DNA of 64,000 nt from Candidatus Bathyarchaeia archaeon (GTDB lineage Bacteria > Hydrogenedentota > Hydrogenedentia > Hydrogenedentales > SLHB01): assembly GCA_035530195.1 (NCBI GenBank), contig DATKVG010000103.1, forward strand, positions 4,069-68,068, read 5' to 3'. Below, piece after piece: positions 2,767-63,961 of the stretch; within the stretch, counting starts at the first letter, position 1; the number at the start of each line of letters is the position of its first letter. The position numbers and the translations under genes are program-made. Under the pieces are notes generated by a model. The model was not told the origin of the DNA and did no database searches. It saw only the letters and a list, made by a program, of their open reading frames with translations.

Positions 2767-4707
2767 ATGGGCCGCATTTTGTTCGCAGCAATCTTGGGCA
2801 TGTTTTGCATCGCCGCCGCAGCGGGCGCGCAGGACGCCGCTCCTGACTCCAATTCTGCAGATATGGTGAAGAACCGCTTCTTCCGCCTGTCGGACGAGGC
2901 GTTCGCACGGCGCCAGACAGCACGCGACGCGCTCGCAACGCCCGAAGAAATCGCCGCATACCAGGCGGAGATGCGACAGTTCTTCACGGATCAGCTCGGC
3001 GGCTTTTGGGAAAAGGGCCCGCTGAACGCGCAGGTTGTCGGCACGGGCGAACGCGACGGGTTCCGCTATGAGAAAGTCATTTATGAGAGCATGCCCGGTC
3101 TGCTAATCACGGGCATCGTGTTTCTGCCGCTCGAGGCGGGCCCGTACCCGGGGGTGATCGTGCCGTGTGGACATGATGACGGGGGCAAGGTGTGCGAAGC
3201 GTACCAGCGGCTTTGCATCCTGCTGGCCAGGAACGGGATTGCGGCGCTGATCTACGACCCGATCGGCCAGGGGGAGCGCGTTCAGGTTTTTGGCGAGGAC
3301 GGCAAACCGAAGTACAGTTGCACGATCGAGCACACGGTGGTCGGGGCGGCCGCGATACCGCTGGGGTGGAGCACGGCGAAGTTTCGGGTGTGGGACGGGA
3401 TGCGCAGCATCGACTATTTGGCGAGCCGGCCGGATATCCACCCCGAGCGGATCGGGTGCACCGGCAACAGCGGCGGCGGCACGCTCACCAGCTACATCAT
3501 GGCGCTCGACCCGCGCGTAAAATGCGCCGCGCCCAGTTGCTACATCACCAGCCAGCAGCTTTTCTTCCGCAAAGACGGGCCGCAGGACGCCGAGCAGAAT
3601 ATCCACGGCCAGATCGCGCGGGGTATGGAGCATGCGGACTACGTGATGATGCGGGCGCCGCGGCCAACGCTGATCTGCTCCGCCACACGGGATTTTTTCA
3701 ACATCGAGGGGACGTGGGACAGTTTCCGCGACGCCAAACGCCTCTACACCAAGCTGGGGTTTCCCGAGCGCGTGAGCCTGGTCGAGGCGGACGAGGAGCA
3801 CGGGTTCACGGCGCCGTTGCGGCAGGGTGCGGCGCGGTGGATGCGCCGGTGGTTGCTGGAAAAGGACGACGCGGCGGTCGAACAGGACGCGACCGTACTG
3901 ACGATCGAGGAGGCGCGGTGTACGCCGGACGGGCAGGTGACCAGGATGCCCGGCGCGCGCACGGTCTTCGACGTGATGGCCGAGGAAGAGTCGCGGTTGG
4001 CGACCGGACGCGCGGAATGGCTGAAGTCGACGCCGCGTGAACAGGTGCTGGCGAAGATACGCGAACTGACCGGCATCCGGCTGCTGGCCGATTTGCCGGA
4101 GCCGGGCGTGGAAACGGGGCCGGTCGAGGAACGGGACGGGTACCGGGTGGAAAACCTGGTGTTCAGCCCTGAGGAGGGAATCCAGCTGCGGGCGAGATAT
4201 TACGTTCCAGCGAATCCAACAGGCGGGGCCGAGCTTCACGTGTCTCCGGAAGCGGTTGGGGAACCCTCACAGGAGGTGGTTGCTCTGGTCGCTAATGGAA
4301 CGGCGGTTTTGGCGCTGGAAGTGCGCGGGACAGGTCAGACGGCACCCAAGACGCGGCTCGAGAGTTTCGACAAGGTTTTTGGCGGGGGGTGGCGGGACTT
4401 TTTCACGGCTTACATGCTCGACAAGACCTACCTTGGCATGCAGGCCGAAGATATGATCGCATGCGGCCGGTGGCTGGCGGGCAAGATGGGCGGGAAAGTC
4501 ATGTTACGCGTGGGCGGAAACGGGTTGCAGCCAGCGGGGCTGCATGCGGCGGCGCTGGCGCGGGAAGTGTTCGAGACGTGCGAGCTTGAGCAGCCTCCGG
4601 TAAGCTGGGCGGAGACGGTTCGGGATCCGGAGCGGCCCGGCGCGTTAATCAACACGGTTCACGGCACCCTGCGGTATTACGACATCCCCGATCTTGAGAG
4701 GCTGTGA
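2767..4707 (+). CDS. secreted alpha/beta hydrolase (dienelactone-hydrolase/acetylxylan-esterase-like) with an extra C-terminal domain
   Basis: The internal ATG at 2767 follows a GGGAGG RBS and starts a signal peptide (MGRILFAAILGMFCIAAAAGAQD). A nucleophile elbow G-N-S-G-G-G (CTGNSGGGT) is present. The protein is a paralog of the 58885-60999 product. The ORF-track start at 2620 was rejected. Confidence 0.6.
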   Translation: MGRILFAAILGMFCIAAAAGAQDAAPDSNSADMVKNRFFRLSDEAFARRQTARDALATPEEIAAYQAEMRQFFTDQLGGFWEKGPLNAQVVGTGERDGFRYEKVIYESMPGLLITGIVFLPLEAGPYPGVIVPCGHDDGGKVCEAYQRLCILLARNGIAALIYDPIGQGERVQVFGEDGKPKYSCTIEHTVVGAAAIPLGWSTAKFRVWDGMRSIDYLASRPDIHPERIGCTGNSGGGTLTSYIMALDPRVKCAAPSCYITSQQLFFRKDGPQDAEQNIHGQIARGMEHADYVMMRAPRPTLICSATRDFFNIEGTWDSFRDAKRLYTKLGFPERVSLVEADEEHGFTAPLRQGAARWMRRWLLEKDDAAVEQDATVLTIEEARCTPDGQVTRMPGARTVFDVMAEEESRLATGRAEWLKSTPREQVLAKIRELTGIRLLADLPEPGVETGPVEERDGYRVENLVFSPEEGIQLRARYYVPANPTGGAELHVSPEAVGEPSQEVVALVANGTAVLALEVRGTGQTAPKTRLESFDKVFGGGWRDFFTAYMLDKTYLGMQAEDMIACGRWLAGKMGGKVMLRVGGNGLQPAGLHAAALAREVFETCELEQPPVSWAETVRDPERPGALINTVHGTLRYYDIPDLERL

Positions 4708-8746: not shown

Positions 8747-9435
8747 TGCCCCAGGCGCCGTTCGGCCTGTGCGATTTCGATGAGGGCGGCCCGGTCGAGG
8801 ATTCGGATCTGGCGTGGGTCGGGCATGTCGATGAGGCCTTCTTTGGTCATCCGTGCGAGGATCCGCGAGAGTGTTTCGGGGATCGTGCCAAGCATGCTGG
8901 CGAGTTGGGCCTTGGGCAGCTCGAGGACGAGTGTGTCGCTTCCTTCCTGGCGTGTGCTGAGGTAAAGGAGGTGCGCCGCGAGCCGGGCGGGAACTTCACG
9001 CAACGAGAGGTCTTCGATCAGCGAGGCAAACCGGCGCAACTTGAACGACAACTCCGCCAGCATGCCCAACGCGAGGTCCGGCTCGCTGCGAATCAGGCTG
9101 ATAAACCTGTTGCGCGGGAAAAAGAGCGTGTAGGCGGGTTCGAGCGGTTCGGCGTACGCGGGGAAGTCTTTGCCGGCGAACACGACCGCCTCGCCGAACA
9201 CATCGCCCGGGCCGAACACGTGCAGGATCTGCTCTTTTCCCTCCGGCGAGAGCTTGTACACCTTGACGCGGCCGGAAACGATGGCATGGAAGCCGGTCGC
9301 GCGCTCACCGTCGGCGAAGATGACCTGGCCTTTGTCGTAATTGCGCGTAACCGCAATCTCGGCAAGCTTTTGCCGCAGGTTTTCGGGCAGCCCGCCGAAT
9401 AGGGGGATTGCGCCGATTGTTCTGGAGATGGCCAT
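8740..9435 (-). CDS. Crp/Fnr-family transcriptional regulator (HcpR-like, divergent from hcp)
   Basis: N-terminal cNMP-binding beta-barrel (GDVFGE motif) and C-terminal HTH (ETLSRILARM). It is divergently arranged with hcp, as HcpR regulators are. Confidence 0.8.
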   Translation of the reverse strand: MAISRTIGAIPLFGGLPENLRQKLAEIAVTRNYDKGQVIFADGERATGFHAIVSGRVKVYKLSPEGKEQILHVFGPGDVFGEAVVFAGKDFPAYAEPLEPAYTLFFPRNRFISLIRSEPDLALGMLAELSFKLRRFASLIEDLSLREVPARLAAHLLYLSTRQEGSDTLVLELPKAQLASMLGTIPETLSRILARMTKEGLIDMPDPRQIRILDRAALIEIAQAERRLGQA

Positions 9436-18165: not shown

Positions 18166-18194
18166 GACGGCTGGGACGTCCGCACCGCAATAGC

Positions 18195-18228
18195 GGTCGC
18201 GCAGGAGCGCGACCCCACCGCATGCAGC
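18195..18228. repeat. REP-like hairpin element GGTCGCGC-rGGA-GCGCGACC followed by CCACCGCAT(T)GCAGC, copy 1
   Basis: It lies between the convergent dsbD and cysE genes. A near-identical copy sits at 37175-37209. Confidence 0.6.
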
Positions 18229-19266: not shown

Positions 19267-19314
19267 TACAGATGCCGAGCCTACAGGAAGGTGCAAAAAT
19301 TCGGTCGTGCTGTA

Positions 19315-19420
19315 TAGAATCTTTGTTCGCGACATCTGCGCGCGCCGCGTAGATGTCGGCTCAAAGTCGCGAACAAAGATTCTGATTCCGGCTTACCAGC
19401 CGGCGGCTTCTTAGCCGCCT
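19315..19420. repeat. palindromic repeat element, copy 1 (18-bp perfect inverted repeats AGAATCTTTGTTCGCGAC flanking 33 bp, plus a GGCGGCTTCTTAGCCGCC hairpin tail)
   Basis: It is directly comparable with copy 2 at 29769-29875, which has the inverse orientation. Confidence 0.7.
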
Positions 19421-27152: not shown

Positions 27153-27610
27153 ACAACTCCGAACGCGCCTGCGTCTTTTTCAGCATCGGCAGCGACTTCG
27201 CCAAAGTGGTAAAAACCGTGCGGGCGCGGCATCCGGGTGCGCGCATCACAGCGATGGCGCCACCCGATTTTCCAATGGACGGCGTGGCGGCCGACGACGT
27301 CGTGCGGATGGAAGTGCAGCGGTACCGGCCATGGCACGTTGCGCGGCTTCGTCGCCTGGCCCGTCAACTCCGGGCGGGCCGGTACGACCGGTTCGTGGTC
27401 CTTTTCCCGAGCGTGAAACTCAAGATGCTCGCCTCGTTGAGCGGCGCGCCAAAATGCGAGTGCTGGGGCGTCGACGGCCGGGTCCGCCGGCTGGACCCCG
27501 GGTTCTGGGGCAATTTCTCCGGCGAACTTCCGCGGCGGTTGCGCGGGTTTTGGCAGTTTCTCGACGTCTGGGTGCAGACGCTGCTGCGGCCGGTGAGGAA
27601 ACGGCGCTAG
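27149..27610 (+). CDS. hypothetical protein (153 aa), translationally coupled to the GT4 gene
   Basis: Its ATG overlaps the GT4 stop (ATGA). Arg-rich. No recognisable domain. Confidence 0.45.
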   Translation: MNNSERACVFFSIGSDFAKVVKTVRARHPGARITAMAPPDFPMDGVAADDVVRMEVQRYRPWHVARLRRLARQLRAGRYDRFVVLFPSVKLKMLASLSGAPKCECWGVDGRVRRLDPGFWGNFSGELPRRLRGFWQFLDVWVQTLLRPVRKRR

Positions 27611-28221
27611 TCTTTCCTTATTGATCGCCTTGTCTTGTAGAGGCGCTCGGTGAAACCACCTTCCTGCTGAAACTTTCTCGCTTGGGTGGCAATTTGGCGA
27701 TCAAGGAGGAACGAAGCCACTGTGATGAGGGCGAGAGCGGCGTTGGCGGCGATTTCGGGGAAAGTGGACGGAGTGGACCTAGTGGACGAAGTGGACGGAG
27801 TGGACGCGGACATTTTTGAGACTGGGCGGCCGTGAATACTCTTTGCCCATTCGGCTACTGCGTCGGCGGTTGCGGGGCGAGACACTATCAAAGCGGTCCT
27901 TCGTGGATCGTTGCGATCCCACTGCGGAAGGCGGCGTTGGCGCAGAAAGTCTTCGTAATCCAAGCGCAGTTCTTCCAGACTGGAGCGGGCTACGCTTGTG
28001 AGTTTTAACTCCGTCTTTTTCGAGGTGGCCGAAGTCTGACTTCCTTCTGCAATGTTCTGGACACCTGATCTGGCGGATTGGACCATTTGCTCATACATCT
28101 TGTGCGACCTGACGTATTTGTCGCAGAAACGGACAGTGACGTCATAAACTAACTGCGCCACCTGAAAGCTCTTCAGTTTCCGAAACCCACCGTGTTTCTG
28201 TATAAGCGGCTCTTTGTCCAC
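27607..28221 (-). CDS. four-helix-bundle protein (TIGR02436 / 23S-IVS / Avd-like family) with Ser/Thr/Pro-repeat C-terminal extension
   Basis: The N-terminal 120 aa show the family signature (...ARSGVQNIAEGSQTS...SLEELRLDYEDFL). The C-terminal extension contains STPSTSSTRSTPST, encoded by a 9-bp tandem repeat. GTG start. Confidence 0.6.
   Translation of the reverse strand: MDKEPLIQKHGGFRKLKSFQVAQLVYDVTVRFCDKYVRSHKMYEQMVQSARSGVQNIAEGSQTSATSKKTELKLTSVARSSLEELRLDYEDFLRQRRLPQWDRNDPRRTALIVSRPATADAVAEWAKSIHGRPVSKMSASTPSTSSTRSTPSTFPEIAANAALALITVASFLLDRQIATQARKFQQEGGFTERLYKTRRSIRKD
27763..27807. repeat. 5 x 9-bp tandem array AGTGGACNN inside the four-helix-bundle gene
   Basis: agtggacgg agtggacct agtggacga agtggacgg agtggacgc. 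On the coding strand it encodes STPSTSSTRSTPST. Confidence 0.75.
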
Positions 28222-28222
28222 G

Positions 28223-28267
28223 GTCCACTCAGTCCACTATGTCCACTACGTCCACTGCGTCCACTAC
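28223..28267. repeat. 5 x 9-bp tandem array GTCCACTNN immediately upstream of the four-helix-bundle gene start (inverted relative to the internal array)
   Basis: gtccactca gtccactat gtccactac gtccactgc gtccactac. It overlaps the tyrS stop codon. Confidence 0.75.
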
Positions 28268-29768: not shown

Positions 29769-29875
29769 GCGACGGCTTTTTAAGCCGCGGCTTAAGAAGC
29801 CGCATTCAGAATCTTTGTTCGCGACCTTGAGCTAACATCTACGCGCCGTGCGCAGATGTCGCGAACAAAGATTCT
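29769..29875. repeat. palindromic repeat element, copy 2 (inverted orientation relative to copy 1)
   Basis: It has the same 18-bp inverted repeats. The internal 32 bp is the near reverse complement of copy 1's internal segment. The tail hairpins are on the opposite side. Confidence 0.7.
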
Positions 29876-29919
29876 AATAGCAAGTGAGGTAATGACATAT
29901 ATTTGGGAGGGGTACGTTT

Positions 29920-37017: not shown

Positions 37018-37174
37018 GGCATTTCTCCGATCTAACAGTCGCTAAGTCCTTTGTTTCTGGCGAAGAGCCTTTAGTAACTCTGTCCTTGGAAGCAGCGGTG
37101 GGGTCGAGATCCTGCTCGACCGTGGCTCCAACATCCCAACCTGCGCCTCCGGGGTACCGCCTCTGCCACCACCC

Positions 37175-37209
37175 GGTCGCGCGGGAGCGCGACCCCACCG
37201 CATTGCAGC
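37175..37209. repeat. REP-like hairpin element, copy 2
   Basis: ggtcgcgcgggagcgcgaccccaccgcattgcagc lies in the eda / LmbE-like divergent region. Confidence 0.6.
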
Positions 37210-37235: not shown

Positions 37236-37271
37236 TTGGCACATCGGATCGGTCGGATCCGTCGGATCGGT
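37236..37271. repeat. 4 x 9-bp tandem repeat (CGGATCGGT / CGGATCCGT) upstream of the LmbE-like deacetylase gene
   Basis: Read directly as cggatcggt cggatccgt cggatcggt cggatcggt. Confidence 0.7.
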
Positions 37272-37341
37272 CGGATCGGTTCTGTAGCCCACGTGCACAA
37301 AACCCCAAAAATTCGTTATAGTACCCGAGGGAGGATTTGCA

Positions 37342-38142
37342 ATGGCAAAGCCGGTCGCGTTTGCGGTGGGTGCACACCCGGACGACATCGAGTTTATGAT
37401 GGCGGGCACGTTGTTGATGCTGGGCCGGGCGGGGTATGAACTGCACACGATGAACATCTGCAACGGCTCGTGCGGAACCGCCGTCGAGGATCGCGAGGCC
37501 ATCATCGCCCGCAGAACCGCCGAGGCCCGCGAGGCCGCTCGCTCGCTCGGCGCGCATTTCCACGAGCCGCTGGTGGACGATATCGATCTGTTTTACGAGC
37601 CGGGCGTCCTGCATCGGGTCGCGGCAGTCGTGCGGGACGTGAAACCGGCCGTGCTGCTGACGGCCTCACCGCAGGATTACATGGAAGACCACATGACGGC
37701 GTCGCGCGTGGCGGTGACGGCGGCGTTCTGCCGGGGCATGCGCAATTTTCCAACCGACCCGCCGCGCCCGCCCATCGACGTCGAGGTGACGGTGTACCAC
37801 GCCCTGCCCTGGGGGTTGAGCGACAGCCTCAGGCGTGTTGTCCGCGCCGGTCAGTACGTGGATATCGCGCCGGTGCTTGAACAGAAACGGGCCGCGCTGG
37901 CGTGTCACAAAAGCCAGAAGGAATGGCTCGACTCGAGCCAGGGGCTCGACAGCTACCTGACCACGATGGAAGAAATGAGCCGCGAGGTCGGCAAACAGTC
38001 GGGCCAATTCGAGTACGCCGAGGGATGGCGGCGTCATCTGCACCTGGGTTTTTGCTCGGAGGCGGCCGACCCGCTTTCCGAGGCGGTTGGCAAACACGGA
38101 ATCATATCGCGGGCCTACGAGGACGGCCCGAACAGGGCTTGA
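37342..38142 (+). CDS. PIG-L/LmbE-family N-acetylglucosaminyl deacetylase
   Basis: The AHPDDIE metal-binding motif sits near the N-terminus. Length and fold fit the LmbE family. Confidence 0.8.
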
Positions 38143-38180
38143 CGCGCGTCCGCGCGCGCCGACGCGCGTCCGCGCGCGCC
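38141..38180. repeat. perfect 2 x 20-bp tandem duplication GACGCGCGTCCGCGCGCGCC between the LmbE-like and NagB-like genes
   Basis: Read directly. Each unit contains the palindromes GACGCGCGTC and CGCGCGCG. Confidence 0.75.
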
Positions 38181-38194
38181 GAAAGGAGAAACCA

Positions 38195-56922: not shown

Positions 56923-56940
56923 CCGAACAAGACAATCGAA

Positions 56941-57030
56941 TCTGGAACTCAGGAACTCAGGAAGCAGACAGCCGCGCGATCGCAGACCTTCCCTGATCTC
57001 ATGAGTTCCAGATTTTCCTGACTTTGAAGC
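56941..57030 (+). terminator. long imperfect hairpin with U-rich tail after the Tat-exported protein gene; part of the segmental duplication
   Basis: atctggaactca...(~50 nt)...tgagttccagattttcc. A diverged copy lies at 61052-61135. Confidence 0.4.
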
Positions 57031-57073: not shown

Positions 57074-57277
57074 TTACAGTCCGCACAACGCGTAGATCGT
57101 GCCGGCATGGTCTCCCACGAGGATAGACGCTTCGCCGCGGCCTTCGATGTCGGCCACAATCGGCGGCCCCAGGGTTTCCGGTGCTTCCCAACGCCACAGC
57201 ACGTGTCCCGCGGCCGTGTCAGTGGAGGTGGTGAAAAAAGGCGGTGGTTGTACTAAGGTTGCGGGGCACGTCTCCAT
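57074..57277 (-). pseudogene. remnant of the 3' end of a paralog of the FG-GAP repeat protein gene (61277-63961)
   Basis: The 67-aa ORF (…TDTAAGHVLWRWEAPETLGPPIVADIEGRGEASILVGDHAGTIYAL) matches the last ~50 aa of the 894-aa protein. The flanking DNA (56941-57250) is about 85% identical to 61052-61420. Confidence 0.5.
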
Positions 57278-60999: not shown

Positions 61000-61276
61000 C
61001 TCCTGTCGGGTACGGTGTTGCGTTCAAGCACGTACAGACAAAACTCACACACCATCTGGAACTCAAGAACCCAGGAAACAGACAACTGCGCGAATACCAA
61101 CCTTCCTGATTTCCTGAGTTCGAGATTCTCTTGGTTTTGGAACCGTAATTGTATCTGTTTGTTCGCGAATTGGTATGAGTCACAGCATTTAAGCGCCTTG
61201 AGAGTACCAGATTGCATACGGCTTGTAGTACCAGCGTTTCCCGCGCCCGCGTGGCAATAGACCGCGGGACCTGGCC

Positions 61277-63961
61277 CTACCCGCGCAAGGCGTAGATCGT
61301 GCCGGCCTGGTCTCCCACGAGGATAGACGCCTCGCTCTTGCCTTCCAGGTCGGCCACAATCAGCGGGCCGAGGGTTGACGGCGCTTCCCAACGCCACAGC
61401 ACGTGTCCCGCGGCCGTGTCTGCGGCGGTGGTGACGGCGCAGAGGGTTGTACCTGCGGTCGCGAGGATATCGCATCGCCCGTCGCCATTGATGTCGGCGC
61501 TGGCCACGCCCGTAAGCGTGCCCGGCAAGGGCGGCGACATGGTCCATTCGACGGTGCCCTTCCGCACGTCGTAGCATCGCCAGCCGTCGCCAAAACCTGT
61601 GCCCATCGTCTCGAGCGCGCCGTCCCCGTCAAAATCGCCGAAGGCGAACAGTCCCAGCCCTTTTCCCGATTCGTCGGACCAGACCAGTTGTCCGGCGTGG
61701 TCGATCAGCGCGGTCAAGTCGGTGCCCGCCATGAACAGATAAGGTTTGGCCTCGAGGCCCGCCAACTCAGGCATGGCCACGGGCCGGCCCCAGTACACGG
61801 GATTATCCTTGACCGTGGGCCAGCTCGTATCCCGCTTGAGCAACAGTTCGCCCGTTGCGCCATCGAGTACATAGAGCAGCGAAGGATAGAACGAGGCCAC
61901 GTCGTCCAGCCCGTCGCCATCGAAGTCGGCGAGCGCAAAGGCCGTCCCGCCCACTCCGCGGTTCTGGTGCGGGGTCGCTTGACGCCGTTGCCGCCAGCAT
62001 TCCCGACCGTCCTGGCCTGACAACAGCGCCGTCTCTTCGCTGTGCATCATAGACCGGCGCACGGTCACCAAGACGTCCATGCGCTCAGGATGCGTGAAGT
62101 GGCCCGCTTGCCACAACACAATCCCGCCTACGTTCCAGGTAGGCAGGTCCCCGGGAATGTCGGGAAAATCGTGATGCCAAACCTCTTTGCCGGTGACTAC
62201 GTCTTCCGCCACAAAACGGGCGCAGCCTTCCGGGGCTCTGGCGGCATACAGCAACGCCCTGCGTCCGTCGCCCGCGAGATCGGCAAGCACCGGCCCCGGC
62301 GAAATCGATCCTTCCCACGAGGTGTCCTGCACCCTTCCGGTTGTGCGGCGCACTATTTCCGCCGGTTGGTCTCCGCGCGGTGGATGCAACAGCACGATTT
62401 CCTCGCCACTGCCCCGGACAACCACGACAGGTTGCGCGTCCGCGCGCGCGTTTTCCTGCCCAGCCCACACCACCGCCGGAGGCGCCAGCGATACCCCTGG
62501 ATGTTGGGTTGCCTGCATGTCCACGCGGCCCTGGACAGTGAGGGTTTGCCCGGCGCGTGACTGAAAAAGCAGCGACCCAGAACCGTCAATCGCCAGACCG
62601 GACAGCCCCGCGCCTGTAACCGAGCCCTCCTGCCGGAATCCATTGTCCCACCGGGCGAGCGCCAGGACGGACTCGGTCCTCAATGCCGCGACGAACCCCC
62701 GGGACGAAGCTCGCGCCAGCACGGTTTCCTGGCCCAGCGTTGCCCCGGCGTATACGTGCTCCGCTACGGGTGCGCGATGATGCTCCCAGGCCCTGCCCGA
62801 CGATTGCCAGACGCACTCCAATCTGTTCGCGCCCGCCCCTGCGCGCCATTTCCACACCCGGATCGGGCCCCACTGCGCCACGGCCGCCCCTTGGGTATCG
62901 GTGGTCAACAGTTCGGCCCGGCCGTCGCCGTCCACGTCCATGGCTGCTTCGAAATAAGCGTCGTCAAGCTCCGCTTTCACCACCCCGGTCAGCCCGTCGC
63001 GCACGTGCGCGTGCCAACGACTGTCGCGCCGCTCGTTGTAGCCGCTCCATATCACCTCCGCCACGCCGTCGCCATCCATGTCCGCCACGCAAGTCGGCCT
63101 CACACGCACGATCGTGCTTGGATCGTCGATGATCAACTCGATTTCCTGTTTCCACAGCAGTTCGAGACGCCCTTCCCGAAACCCGAGCACGTCCACGTGC
63201 TTGGCGAAATCCGCCAACACTACAAATTCCCACAACCCGTCTCCGTTCAAATCGTGCGCGCCAAAATAGCCATAGTTTCGGCCCGGCGTGAACTTGCATC
63301 GCTGTTCAAGCCGGCCCGTGGCCGCGTCGAAAAGATGCAGGGCGTACCATGGCAGCACGGCGATCTCGAGTTGGCCGTCATGATCGTAATCTTCCGCCAG
63401 CAGGCCCACGTTGCTCGTGTTGCCGCCGGGCCGCCAGTCGCTTTCCCACTGCACTTGCCACACCCCGTCTTTCCACGCCCGGCACACCACCCGGAAATCC
63501 TTGTCGTATTGGCCCCGGGGCCGCATTTCATAAACCACTTCTTCGACGCCGGGTATCTCCGGCAAGACGTCCGCCAGTACCCGCGCCGATACGTTTTCCG
63601 GGCGCGGCTGAACCTTGCCATCGAGTAATACGTCCCTCGCCTGCGGATACCACCTCGCCATATCCGGCAACGATTGCGGCAGGCCGGCCGTCTCCACCGC
63701 AACAGTGTGTTCCGCGATTCCGTCCAACGCCAGCGATCCCAGCGCCAACACCGTTCCCACGTCGTACTGCCACGCCACCCGCGGCGACTCGATATGGCCC
63801 TTGAGCGGCGAGTACGAGAGCCGCGTGCCATCGCGCTTTTCGCACGGCCATTCCGCGGCATTGGGAAATGCCGACGGCTTCGGAAACGCCGGTTCCGAGT
63901 GACCCGCGATGCAGACAGCAAGAGCCGCCAACGCCGCGCACAATGTTCTGCGCGTCATCAC
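61277..63961 (-). CDS. secreted FG-GAP/beta-propeller repeat protein
   Basis: Signal peptide (MMTRRTLCAALAALAVCIAG). It carries multiple DxDGDG / DFDGDG calcium-binding FG-GAP-like repeats. Confidence 0.65.
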   Translation of the reverse strand: MMTRRTLCAALAALAVCIAGHSEPAFPKPSAFPNAAEWPCEKRDGTRLSYSPLKGHIESPRVAWQYDVGTVLALGSLALDGIAEHTVAVETAGLPQSLPDMARWYPQARDVLLDGKVQPRPENVSARVLADVLPEIPGVEEVVYEMRPRGQYDKDFRVVCRAWKDGVWQVQWESDWRPGGNTSNVGLLAEDYDHDGQLEIAVLPWYALHLFDAATGRLEQRCKFTPGRNYGYFGAHDLNGDGLWEFVVLADFAKHVDVLGFREGRLELLWKQEIELIIDDPSTIVRVRPTCVADMDGDGVAEVIWSGYNERRDSRWHAHVRDGLTGVVKAELDDAYFEAAMDVDGDGRAELLTTDTQGAAVAQWGPIRVWKWRAGAGANRLECVWQSSGRAWEHHRAPVAEHVYAGATLGQETVLARASSRGFVAALRTESVLALARWDNGFRQEGSVTGAGLSGLAIDGSGSLLFQSRAGQTLTVQGRVDMQATQHPGVSLAPPAVVWAGQENARADAQPVVVVRGSGEEIVLLHPPRGDQPAEIVRRTTGRVQDTSWEGSISPGPVLADLAGDGRRALLYAARAPEGCARFVAEDVVTGKEVWHHDFPDIPGDLPTWNVGGIVLWQAGHFTHPERMDVLVTVRRSMMHSEETALLSGQDGRECWRQRRQATPHQNRGVGGTAFALADFDGDGLDDVASFYPSLLYVLDGATGELLLKRDTSWPTVKDNPVYWGRPVAMPELAGLEAKPYLFMAGTDLTALIDHAGQLVWSDESGKGLGLFAFGDFDGDGALETMGTGFGDGWRCYDVRKGTVEWTMSPPLPGTLTGVASADINGDGRCDILATAGTTLCAVTTAADTAAGHVLWRWEAPSTLGPLIVADLEGKSEASILVGDQAGTIYALRG

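Follow-up and report, generated by a model that had tools for sequence, protein, structure and literature searches.

The four-helix-bundle proteins of the S23p/IVP/Avd-like superfamily are very numerous, and outside the Avd proteins of diversity-generating retroelements (DGRs) they have no known function. Among the known systems closest to the gene treated here are the S23p/IVP proteins encoded in the intervening sequences (IVSs) of the 23S rRNA genes of Leptospira, Coxiella, and Brucella (PMC4990558). In the Coxiella IVS the S23p open reading frame (ORF) lies within a stem that is cut by RNase III, and strain-variable tandem heptamers (GACAGAT) are found just 5' of its start codon (PMC4990558). 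A gene of the same superfamily, encoding a four-helix bundle with a suffix domain, is found next to tyrS in the 64,000-nucleotide stretch of contig DATKVG010000103.1 (assembly GCA_035530195.1, Hydrogenedentota) that was analysed here and is referred to as the window. Two inverted arrays of 9-bp tandem repeats accompany this gene, one in its leader and one within its coding region. The arrays are the local form of a nucleotide-level signature that the gene family carries in many bacterial phyla. They have the look of an inbuilt nucleic-acid element for control or recognition, not of a switch that works by DNA inversion, and the locus is rated as related to known kinds, namely the stem-enclosed S23p ORFs and the repeat-associated genes.

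The window protein shares with the IVS-encoded proteins both the superfamily (PF05635/TIGR02436) and the fold (2gsc and 2rld), and in both cases the start of the ORF lies within a long stem made by flanking inverted repeats, the stem being a predicted one here. The window gene is, however, not situated in an rRNA gene but between tyrS and a glycosyltransferase operon. No Rfam family matches the locus or the window as a whole, and there is no rRNA in the window. The arms of the stem are phased nonamer arrays and not unique sequence, and since one of them lies inside the ORF the predicted stem encloses only the 5' two-thirds of the gene. The window protein is furthermore under clear purifying selection and carries an extra insert in addition to the suffix domain.

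That two inverted 9-bp arrays lie by a four-helix-bundle gene was first pointed out in a preliminary description of the window, and the pair proved to be real, non-random, and tied to the gene (Table 1). The five upstream units said to overlap the tyrS stop codon were recovered, with the stop TAG at 28264-28266 inside the first unit, and so were the five reverse-complement units inside the gene, which code for a linker (GTCCACTNN in gene sense, peptide ASTPSTSSTRSTPST). The distance between the inverted arrays, given as about 410 bp, was measured as 417 nt. On the plus strand the internal array (A-prime) consists of AGTGGACNN x 4.9 and the upstream array (A) of GTCCACTNN x 5.0; the gene is on the minus strand, and in its sense the reading is AGTGGACNN for the upstream array and GTCCACTNN for the internal one. 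Thus read, array A has five AGTGGAC+NN units, the first of them holding the tyrS stop, while A-prime has five GTCCACT+NN units (peptide STPSTSSTRSTPST). The repeat finder pairs the two arrays as inverted arms of 43 nt that are 88% complementary. The pattern GTCCACTNNGTCCAC (at most one mismatch) has eight matches, all within the two arrays, where shuffled sequences lead one to expect 0.12. No further TGGAC/GTCCA array of at least three units in 9-nt phase was found elsewhere in the 64-kb window. A sixth, degenerate unit next to array A holds the GTG start codon of the gene, and relatives show ATGGAC at this place.

When the minus strand of window:27745-28280 is folded as RNA, the minimum free energy is -204.6 kcal/mol vs a shuffle mean of -167.6 (z = -5.6). 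In the predicted fold the two arrays make one long interrupted helix, and both the degenerate sixth unit and the GUG start codon are paired.

Quite possibly, and this is the reading that is preferred, if only tentatively, the arrays are a cis-acting nucleic-acid element, co-inherited as part of the gene cassette, whose cores may pair, be read by an oligomeric basic protein, or both. Each unit consists of a 6-nt core (RTGGAC or its complement GTCCAY) and three free bases, and is repeated three to six times in a strict 9-nt phase. At nearly all loci one arm lies in the ORF, in the disordered loop between the helix-3 insert and helix 4, where it is tolerated by the protein as Ser-Thr-x or x-Gly-x. 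In the window one arm is the leader, directly adjoining the tyrS stop and taking in the start codon, and the other is the linker. In a co-transcript of tyrS and the gene the two could pair into a duplex of about 45 bp, made up of 7-bp helices separated by small internal loops. Such a duplex would bury the start codon and enclose the first two-thirds of the ORF, and it might gate translation initiation and possibly RNase III processing, as is the case with the stems around S23p ORFs in the 23S rRNA IVSs. The phased cores would at the same time serve an oligomeric nucleic-acid-binding protein as points of contact. The binder that requires the fewest assumptions would be the very basic and probably pentameric toroid encoded by the gene itself, which would create an autoregulatory loop. 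A conserved core, a strict phase, and free spacers are what is expected from repeated protein contacts, and a cis element with an oligomeric protein is favoured for this reason. The 2gsc protein has been described as a homopentameric toroid (PMC4990558), and the toroid encoded by the window gene is probably pentameric. The arrangement is similar to the sites of TRAP (GAG/UAG every 5 nt) and HutP when it comes to the short conserved core, the fixed phase, the free spacers, and the position in the leader next to the start codon, and also in that the repeat number is near the subunit number of a toroidal oligomer. However, the fold is unrelated, the window locus adds a complementary array, and binding is here only putative.

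The evidence that the arrays are kept as nucleic acid comes from codon usage in 58 loci with GC contents ranging from 41% to 65%. TCC accounts for 94% of the serine codons in the repeat units vs 16% elsewhere in the same genes, and GGA for 95% of the glycine codons vs 12%. The wobble base ahead of Ser is G in 99% of the units and that ahead of Gly is T in 93%, while in the third codon of each unit the amino-acid-determining positions are free. TGGAC is directly preceded by a purine in at least 92% of the units and GTCCA directly followed by a pyrimidine in about 92%; this flank bias, together with the free spacers, defines the unit as RTGGAC or GTCCAY plus three free bases. Among six close relatives (78-100% protein identity) 50 of 54 core positions and nine of 20 array spacer positions are invariant, and the corresponding figures for codon positions are 324 of 382 for the first and second and 70 of 191 for the third. 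The conservation of the arrays is one of nucleotides and not of amino acids.

A large sister subfamily that is about 45% identical and is found in Lentisphaeria and others has a different repeat peptide. Its proteins contain SDx repeats in 82 of 120 cases, xRT in 12, and S[TIM]x in only one, and SDx repeats occur in none of the proteins of the first subfamily. The DNA units are here GTCCGAC-NN and GTCGGAC-NN, which keep the 9-nt phase and again occur as inverted pairs. One nucleotide motif is thus read in two different frames, which excludes selection at the protein level, and the concordant change of T to C and A to G between the subfamilies means that the arms stay complementary. In this subfamily the arms are found in the linker and the 3' flank in L212 (2400-2900) and L214 (1780-2900), a leader hairpin is present in L214 and L206 (3780-4573), and L216 (1351-1941) has an adjacent single-unit palindrome within the linker. 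One member lies directly 3' of cas9-cas1-cas2 (L217:1-2591).

It could be argued that the Ser-Thr repeats are only a flexible or modified protein linker homogenised by replication slippage, with the upstream copy as a by-product. The repeat-encoded segment is a disordered loop, and the unit number differs among close relatives as slippage predicts. Yet it is the synonymous positions that are conserved and the amino-acid-determining ones that are free, conservation is higher in the cores than at first and second codon positions, the motif recurs in complementary orientation in non-coding leaders and 3' flanks, and the sister subfamily reads one motif in two frames. A linker selected as protein only is, on these data, contradicted by codon usage, by the two frames, and by core conservation, and we regard it as very improbable.

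The protein family is large: at 90% identity this subfamily alone comprises more than 8000 clusters, and over 575 genomic loci were found. The protein search returned at least 8000 such clusters, of which the best 120 were analysed. These are 62-100% identical to the query, mostly 62-72%, and come from Acidobacteria, Deltaproteobacteria, NC10, Planctomycetota, Verrucomicrobia, Chloroflexi, Nitrospirae, and others. MAGs assigned to Chthoniobacter, Geobacter, and Desulfosarcina also contain relatives (L076, L049, L005). Runs of at least two consecutive S[TIM]x units are present in 118 of the 120, and 113 have at least three units before helix 4. The run is immediately preceded by two or more x-G-[QRPLH] units in 95 of the clusters, and a second S-T-x run is found at the C-terminus in 13. 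Many family database "proteins" (P0245-P0390) are truncated near residue 100-150, i.e., at the arrays, which points to assemblies or gene calls being often interrupted by the repeats.

The DNA motif was also mapped in 80 genomic loci, which represent many phyla, with the conserved HGG[YF] anchor as the reference point. RTGGAC is concentrated at -60 to -120, in the leader, and at +360 to +400, while GTCCAY is found at +390 to +450 and, in a subset, at +600 to +660. If the presence of upstream A, linker A, linker A-prime, and 3' A-prime is coded in this order, the commonest architectures are 0110 (27 loci), 1110 (20), 1010, which is the window type (eight), and 0111 (seven). The linker arm is present in about 71 of the 80 loci and thus is the near-constant part; the place of the complementary arm varies, this being next to the linker arm, in the leader, or at the 3' end. 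Most upstream arrays stop no more than about 50 nt from the start codon (median about 21 nt), and a co-directional ORF from upstream terminates at the array, within it, or just past it in 20 of 39 loci, although some of the ORFs that read through may be spurious. One further arrangement noted is that of L010 (Acidobacteriales; 2859-2960, 3665-3920), where an eight-unit leader array is followed by its own short complementary arm and the linker arm has seven units; a separate inverted pair of six and four units, about 150 nt apart, lies past the stop codon.

The genes flanking the 80 loci are highly diverse and fall into 83 Pfam families on the upstream side and 74 on the downstream side. Among them there is an enrichment of type I restriction-modification genes (HsdS in nine of 76 upstream flanks, in addition to HsdR and methylases). 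Among viral contigs a single distant relative was found, and the family is therefore not one of phage genes.

TyrS homologues place the source organism in Candidatus Hydrogenedentes/Hydrogenedentota. In this group the gene order (PKD protein, tyrS, the gene, a 153-aa ORF, glycosyltransferases) is kept down to 78% protein identity, and the unit numbers among the six close relatives vary from five to six upstream and from four to six internally. Downstream of tyrS homologues that are about 75% identical, other genes are found in place of the four-helix-bundle gene, and no array occurs anywhere in the loci compared. This joint absence indicates that gene and arrays come and go together. As synteny is already lost at about 75% identity, the search for empty sites by way of tyrS homologues shows joint absence and not exact insertion boundaries; neither target-site duplications nor cleanly bounded empty sites were found.

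The preliminary description had suggested an invertible DNA switch, in which recombination between the arrays would flip 27807-28222 and turn the gene off and on. The arms do bracket the 5' part of the gene, as the inverted repeats of an inverton would flank its segment. However, the arrays have one and the same orientation in all six close-relative assemblies, which come from different samples, and this orientation predominates in the 80 distant loci. Most family members have adjacent arms with nothing between them to invert, the arms are just 7-bp cores with mismatched spacers, and an inversion would break an ORF under strong purifying selection. There is, as had been stated, no recombinase among the neighbours of the gene, nor is there a recombinase family among the first 25 families listed for the flanks of the 80 related loci. 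With no inverted variant found either, the switch is not supported, and we consider it extremely improbable.

Several observations weigh against the cis-acting element as proposed. The opposite spacers of the two arms are complementary at chance level only (0.29 vs 0.27), which means that continuous pairing has not been selected. Judged by covariation alone, this neither proves nor excludes a pairing of the cores only. Transitions compatible with G-U pairs in non-coding upstream variant units are uninformative, as they show no bias (8 vs 6). An upstream array of at least three exact-core units is found in only 34 of the 80 loci, and the numbers of A and A-prime units neither balance nor correlate (r = 0.02). 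The two arms would be just as complementary if a single double-stranded DNA motif were used both ways. Arrays of the same type, single or as hairpins, are also intergenic on contigs without such a gene; the array element thus occurs outside the cassette as well, and its recognition by this protein is not a necessity.

Some of these points suit another explanation, that of iterons or operators in double-stranded DNA, where the phased cores would bind a protein filament or ring, encoded by the gene or by the host, on duplex DNA, and the two orientations would be head-to-head site sets acting on transcription or on local DNA structure. The 6-bp core is conserved, the 9-bp phase strict, and the spacers free, and the absence of spacer complementarity suits binding sites more than it suits a helix. 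Single arrays without a partner exist, the protein is basic, and about a quarter of the family loci are in restriction-modification operons. Small autoregulatory controller proteins are known in such operons. Like the operators of these controllers and like plasmid iterons, the arrays are direct and inverted sets of phased sites beside the regulator's own gene, and the family shares with the controllers a frequent restriction-modification context. The 9-bp phase, however, mismatches the helical repeat of B-DNA, and the arrays lie mostly in or after ORFs and not at recognisable promoters, the constant arm being in the middle of a coding region. In contrast to the iteron and controller systems, the window locus has neither a replication origin nor a helix-turn-helix protein, its sites extend into the coding region, and the fold search made no DNA-binding fold such as a helix-turn-helix evident in the window protein. 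The iteron-like reading of the preliminary description is still live in view of the core, the phase, and the spacers, which are such as phased protein contacts would give; as an explanation based on duplex DNA it is unlikely.

Arrays away from the gene were sought in a pattern-only metagenome scan for five exact TGGAC units in 9-nt phase, which matched at least 120 contigs. Collagen-like or perfect 9-nt repeats were removed by a filter for the R/Y flank and for spacer diversity. Among the 120 matches listed, 70 were such perfect or collagen-like repeats and 50 had the R/Y flank and diverse spacers. Eight of these 50 carry the gene and 42 have no such gene on the contig; 16 of the latter extend more than 1.2 kb on both sides of the array. 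One gene family, with arrays at fixed positions, thus makes up 16% of this unbiased sample. Many of the 42 contigs without the gene have A...A-prime hairpins between housekeeping genes that are unrelated (e.g., L106, L194, L160, L161, L204, L199, L163, L171), and single arrays without a partner occur as well. No partner gene common to the gene-free arrays was found, their flanks matching 81 different Pfam families. The intergenic hairpins are built from an RTGGAC-N3 array followed by a GTCCAY-N3 array, and some contigs have several within 10 kb. Sites noted are L106:2315-2410, L194:4051-4219, L160:2312-2561, L161:829-947, L204:689-761, L199:352-392 and 882-964, and L163:749-832 and 9332-9427; the arrays of L199 flank what from its sequence reads as a ruvX/yqgF-like gene.

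The family loci themselves, about 460 kb in total, have eight arrays elsewhere than at the gene, some of them inside restriction-modification genes, and no second copy of the gene was found near these eight. Arrays within other ORFs near the gene were noted in L020 (about 636), L054 (about 5018), L036 (about 2386), and L073 (about 2656), where they encode DGRDGQSGR, STASTLSTLS, SSTPSITSTTST, and VDLVDDMDMMDEVDMVDNMD, respectively; two of these ORFs resemble restriction-modification proteins in their sequence motifs. It had been stated at the outset that the case for these arrays would fall if the repeat were simply dispersed and had no association with the gene. This applies by half, as the repeat class is dispersed while the association with the gene holds.

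The dispersed arrays bring to mind the REP/RAYT systems (REPtrons). In a system of this kind the RTGGAC-N3 arrays would be mobile or amplifiable, the gene would maintain, spread, or exploit them, and the local arrays would be element ends or insertion scars. Arrays of this type on 50 of the 120 contigs, 42 of them without the gene and many as hairpins between housekeeping genes, are in line with this, as is the presence of a single gene family on eight of the 50. The gene occurs in unrelated contexts across phyla at 60-70% identity, gene and arrays are both missing 3' of tyrS in related genomes, and arrays are also found inside neighbouring restriction-modification genes. As in REP/RAYT, a single gene is flanked by inverted copies of a short repeat that is also found as intergenic hairpins. 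The window protein is, however, a small helical bundle that matches only four-helix-bundle families and is not an HUH/Y1 transposase; profile and fold searches recognised no nuclease or transposase domain in it. Instead of palindromes of about 35 nt there are arrays in which a 6-nt core recurs every 9 nt, and one of these lies inside the ORF. The lack of a further array in the window, of target-site duplications, and of cleanly bounded empty sites also speaks against such a system, as does the stable synteny of the Hydrogenedentota locus, and we find it quite unlikely.

A broader form of the proposal, which is credible but rather unlikely, is that of a cognate protein-repeat system present in many bacterial phyla. 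The basic toroidal TIGR04258 protein would here read phased nonamer arrays, RTGGAC-N3 or GTCGGAC-NN depending on the subfamily. The arrays would co-vary with the protein, would sit in its own gene for self-control, and would also be dispersed as intergenic hairpins.

Two further relationships were considered. The Avd proteins of DGRs are homologous to the window protein and are likewise basic, pentamer-forming four-helix bundles that work bound to nucleic acid. The window locus, however, has no reverse transcriptase and no template/variable repeats, and Avd for its part lacks both the suffix domain and a linker encoded by repeats. No direct repeat of at least 30 nt, as a template/variable pair (about 100 bp, with differences at adenines) would give, involves the locus, and reverse transcriptase is absent among the neighbours. 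The proposed link to DGRs is therefore not supported, while the placement of the gene product in the S23p/IVP/Avd-like superfamily is borne out by profile and fold matches. The high-GC DnaA box, TTGTCCACA, resembles GTCCAC. The idea that the arrays are DnaA boxes was dropped since the flanking TT and A are free or divergent here and the core permits GTCCAT.

The gene and its surroundings are summarised in Table 1. The protein has the two domains that define the four helix bundle suffix family: TIGR04258 (four helix bundle suffix domain) matches over its full profile length at residues 155-203 with 67.4 bits (cut-off 40), and TIGR02436 (N-terminal S23p/IVP four-helix bundle) with 34.3 bits (cut-off 24). 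PF05635 (23S rRNA intervening sequence protein) gives 33.2 bits, slightly below its gathering score of 33.8. An AlphaFold model with a mean pLDDT of 81 has helices at residues 17-36, 40-63, 68-95, and 155-187, and in this model the repeat-encoded stretch is a disordered loop at residues 135-152 (pLDDT below 50 at about residues 139-153). The nearest solved structures are 2gsc (Xcc0516) and 2rld (S23 family), and there is a weak match to bAvd in the DGR complex. The family as a whole is strongly basic, with a median pI of 9.9 and a median net charge of +10. An identical protein (P0001) is found on five contigs. PADLOC, with its models of known anti-phage defence, gave no match.

Table 1. Features of the tyrS and four-helix-bundle suffix gene region (window coordinates)
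Feature	Position	Strand	Description
Internal array A-prime	27763-27806	-	Tandem Repeats Finder: period 9, 4.9 copies, consensus AGTGGACGG
Upstream array A	28223-28267	-	Tandem Repeats Finder: period 9, 5.0 copies, consensus GTCCACTAC
Sixth, degenerate unit (C)GTGGAC, 8-nt phase	28215-28222	-	GTCCACG on the + strand at 28216-28222
Four-helix-bundle suffix gene	27607-28221	-	204 aa, GTG start, pI 10.2, net charge +14
tyrS, tyrosine-tRNA ligase, 422 aa	28264-29532	-	Directly upstream of the four-helix-bundle gene
Helices 1-3 of the bundle, residues 17-95	27937-28173	-	Most conserved part of the family
Two short inserted helices, residues 106-131	27829-27906	-	Between helix 3 and the repeat-encoded loop
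Helix 4 and basic tail = TIGR04258 suffix domain, residues 155-203	27613-27759	-	

Within 2.5 kb of the gene are found the PKD protein, TyrS, the unannotated 153-aa ORF, and the glycosyltransferases. No promoter-like or terminator-like site was found between tyrS and the four-helix-bundle gene, and the two are probably co-transcribed. The leader between the PKD-protein gene and tyrS contains one copy (29782-29876, minus strand) of an element of about 80 nt that occurs a second time at 19313-19390 (plus strand). The two copies are 86% identical, and the element is in itself a nested palindrome (AGAATCTTTGTTCGCGAC...GTCGCGAACAAAGATTCT, enclosing a ACATCTGCGCG...CGCGTAGATGT hairpin) without an Rfam match. 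Elsewhere in the window there are direct repeats at 57081-57234 and 61281-61434 (154 nt, 88%) and at 56940-56992 and 61054-61106 (53 nt, 81%), both pairs being 4.1-4.2 kb apart and resembling duplicated 5' regions of genes. A hairpin-like 30-nt repeat, CGGTCGCGCAGGAGCGCGACCCCACCGCAT, is found at 18194-18223 and, 19 kb away, at 37174-37203 (97% identity), and there are tandem repeats at 37244-37280 (TCGGATCGG x 4.1, period 9, 92% matches) and 38141-38182 (a perfect 20-nt unit, GACGCGCGTCCGCGCGCGCC x 2.1).

The protein family has already been catalogued (NCBIfam). Searches of the full-text literature gave nothing on the arrays, on nucleotide conservation in the linker, on the function of the suffix family, or specific to stand-alone Avd-like proteins. 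A motif that is conserved at synonymous sites, in both orientations and in many phyla, and that switches between subfamilies, is a concrete and testable clue to a specific nucleic-acid element as the working partner of these proteins. With it comes a class of phased nonamer arrays that had gone unremarked; they break assemblies and create low-complexity "STxSTx/SGxSGx/MDxMDx/WTxWTx" peptides in annotations, and they may serve as intergenic regulatory or structural elements. If the cognate protein-repeat system is true, it would be a new kind of repeat-associated gene, functionally between REP/RAYT and the ring regulators of the TRAP type, and it would give the first functional handle on the superfamily of S23p, IVP, and stand-alone Avd proteins.

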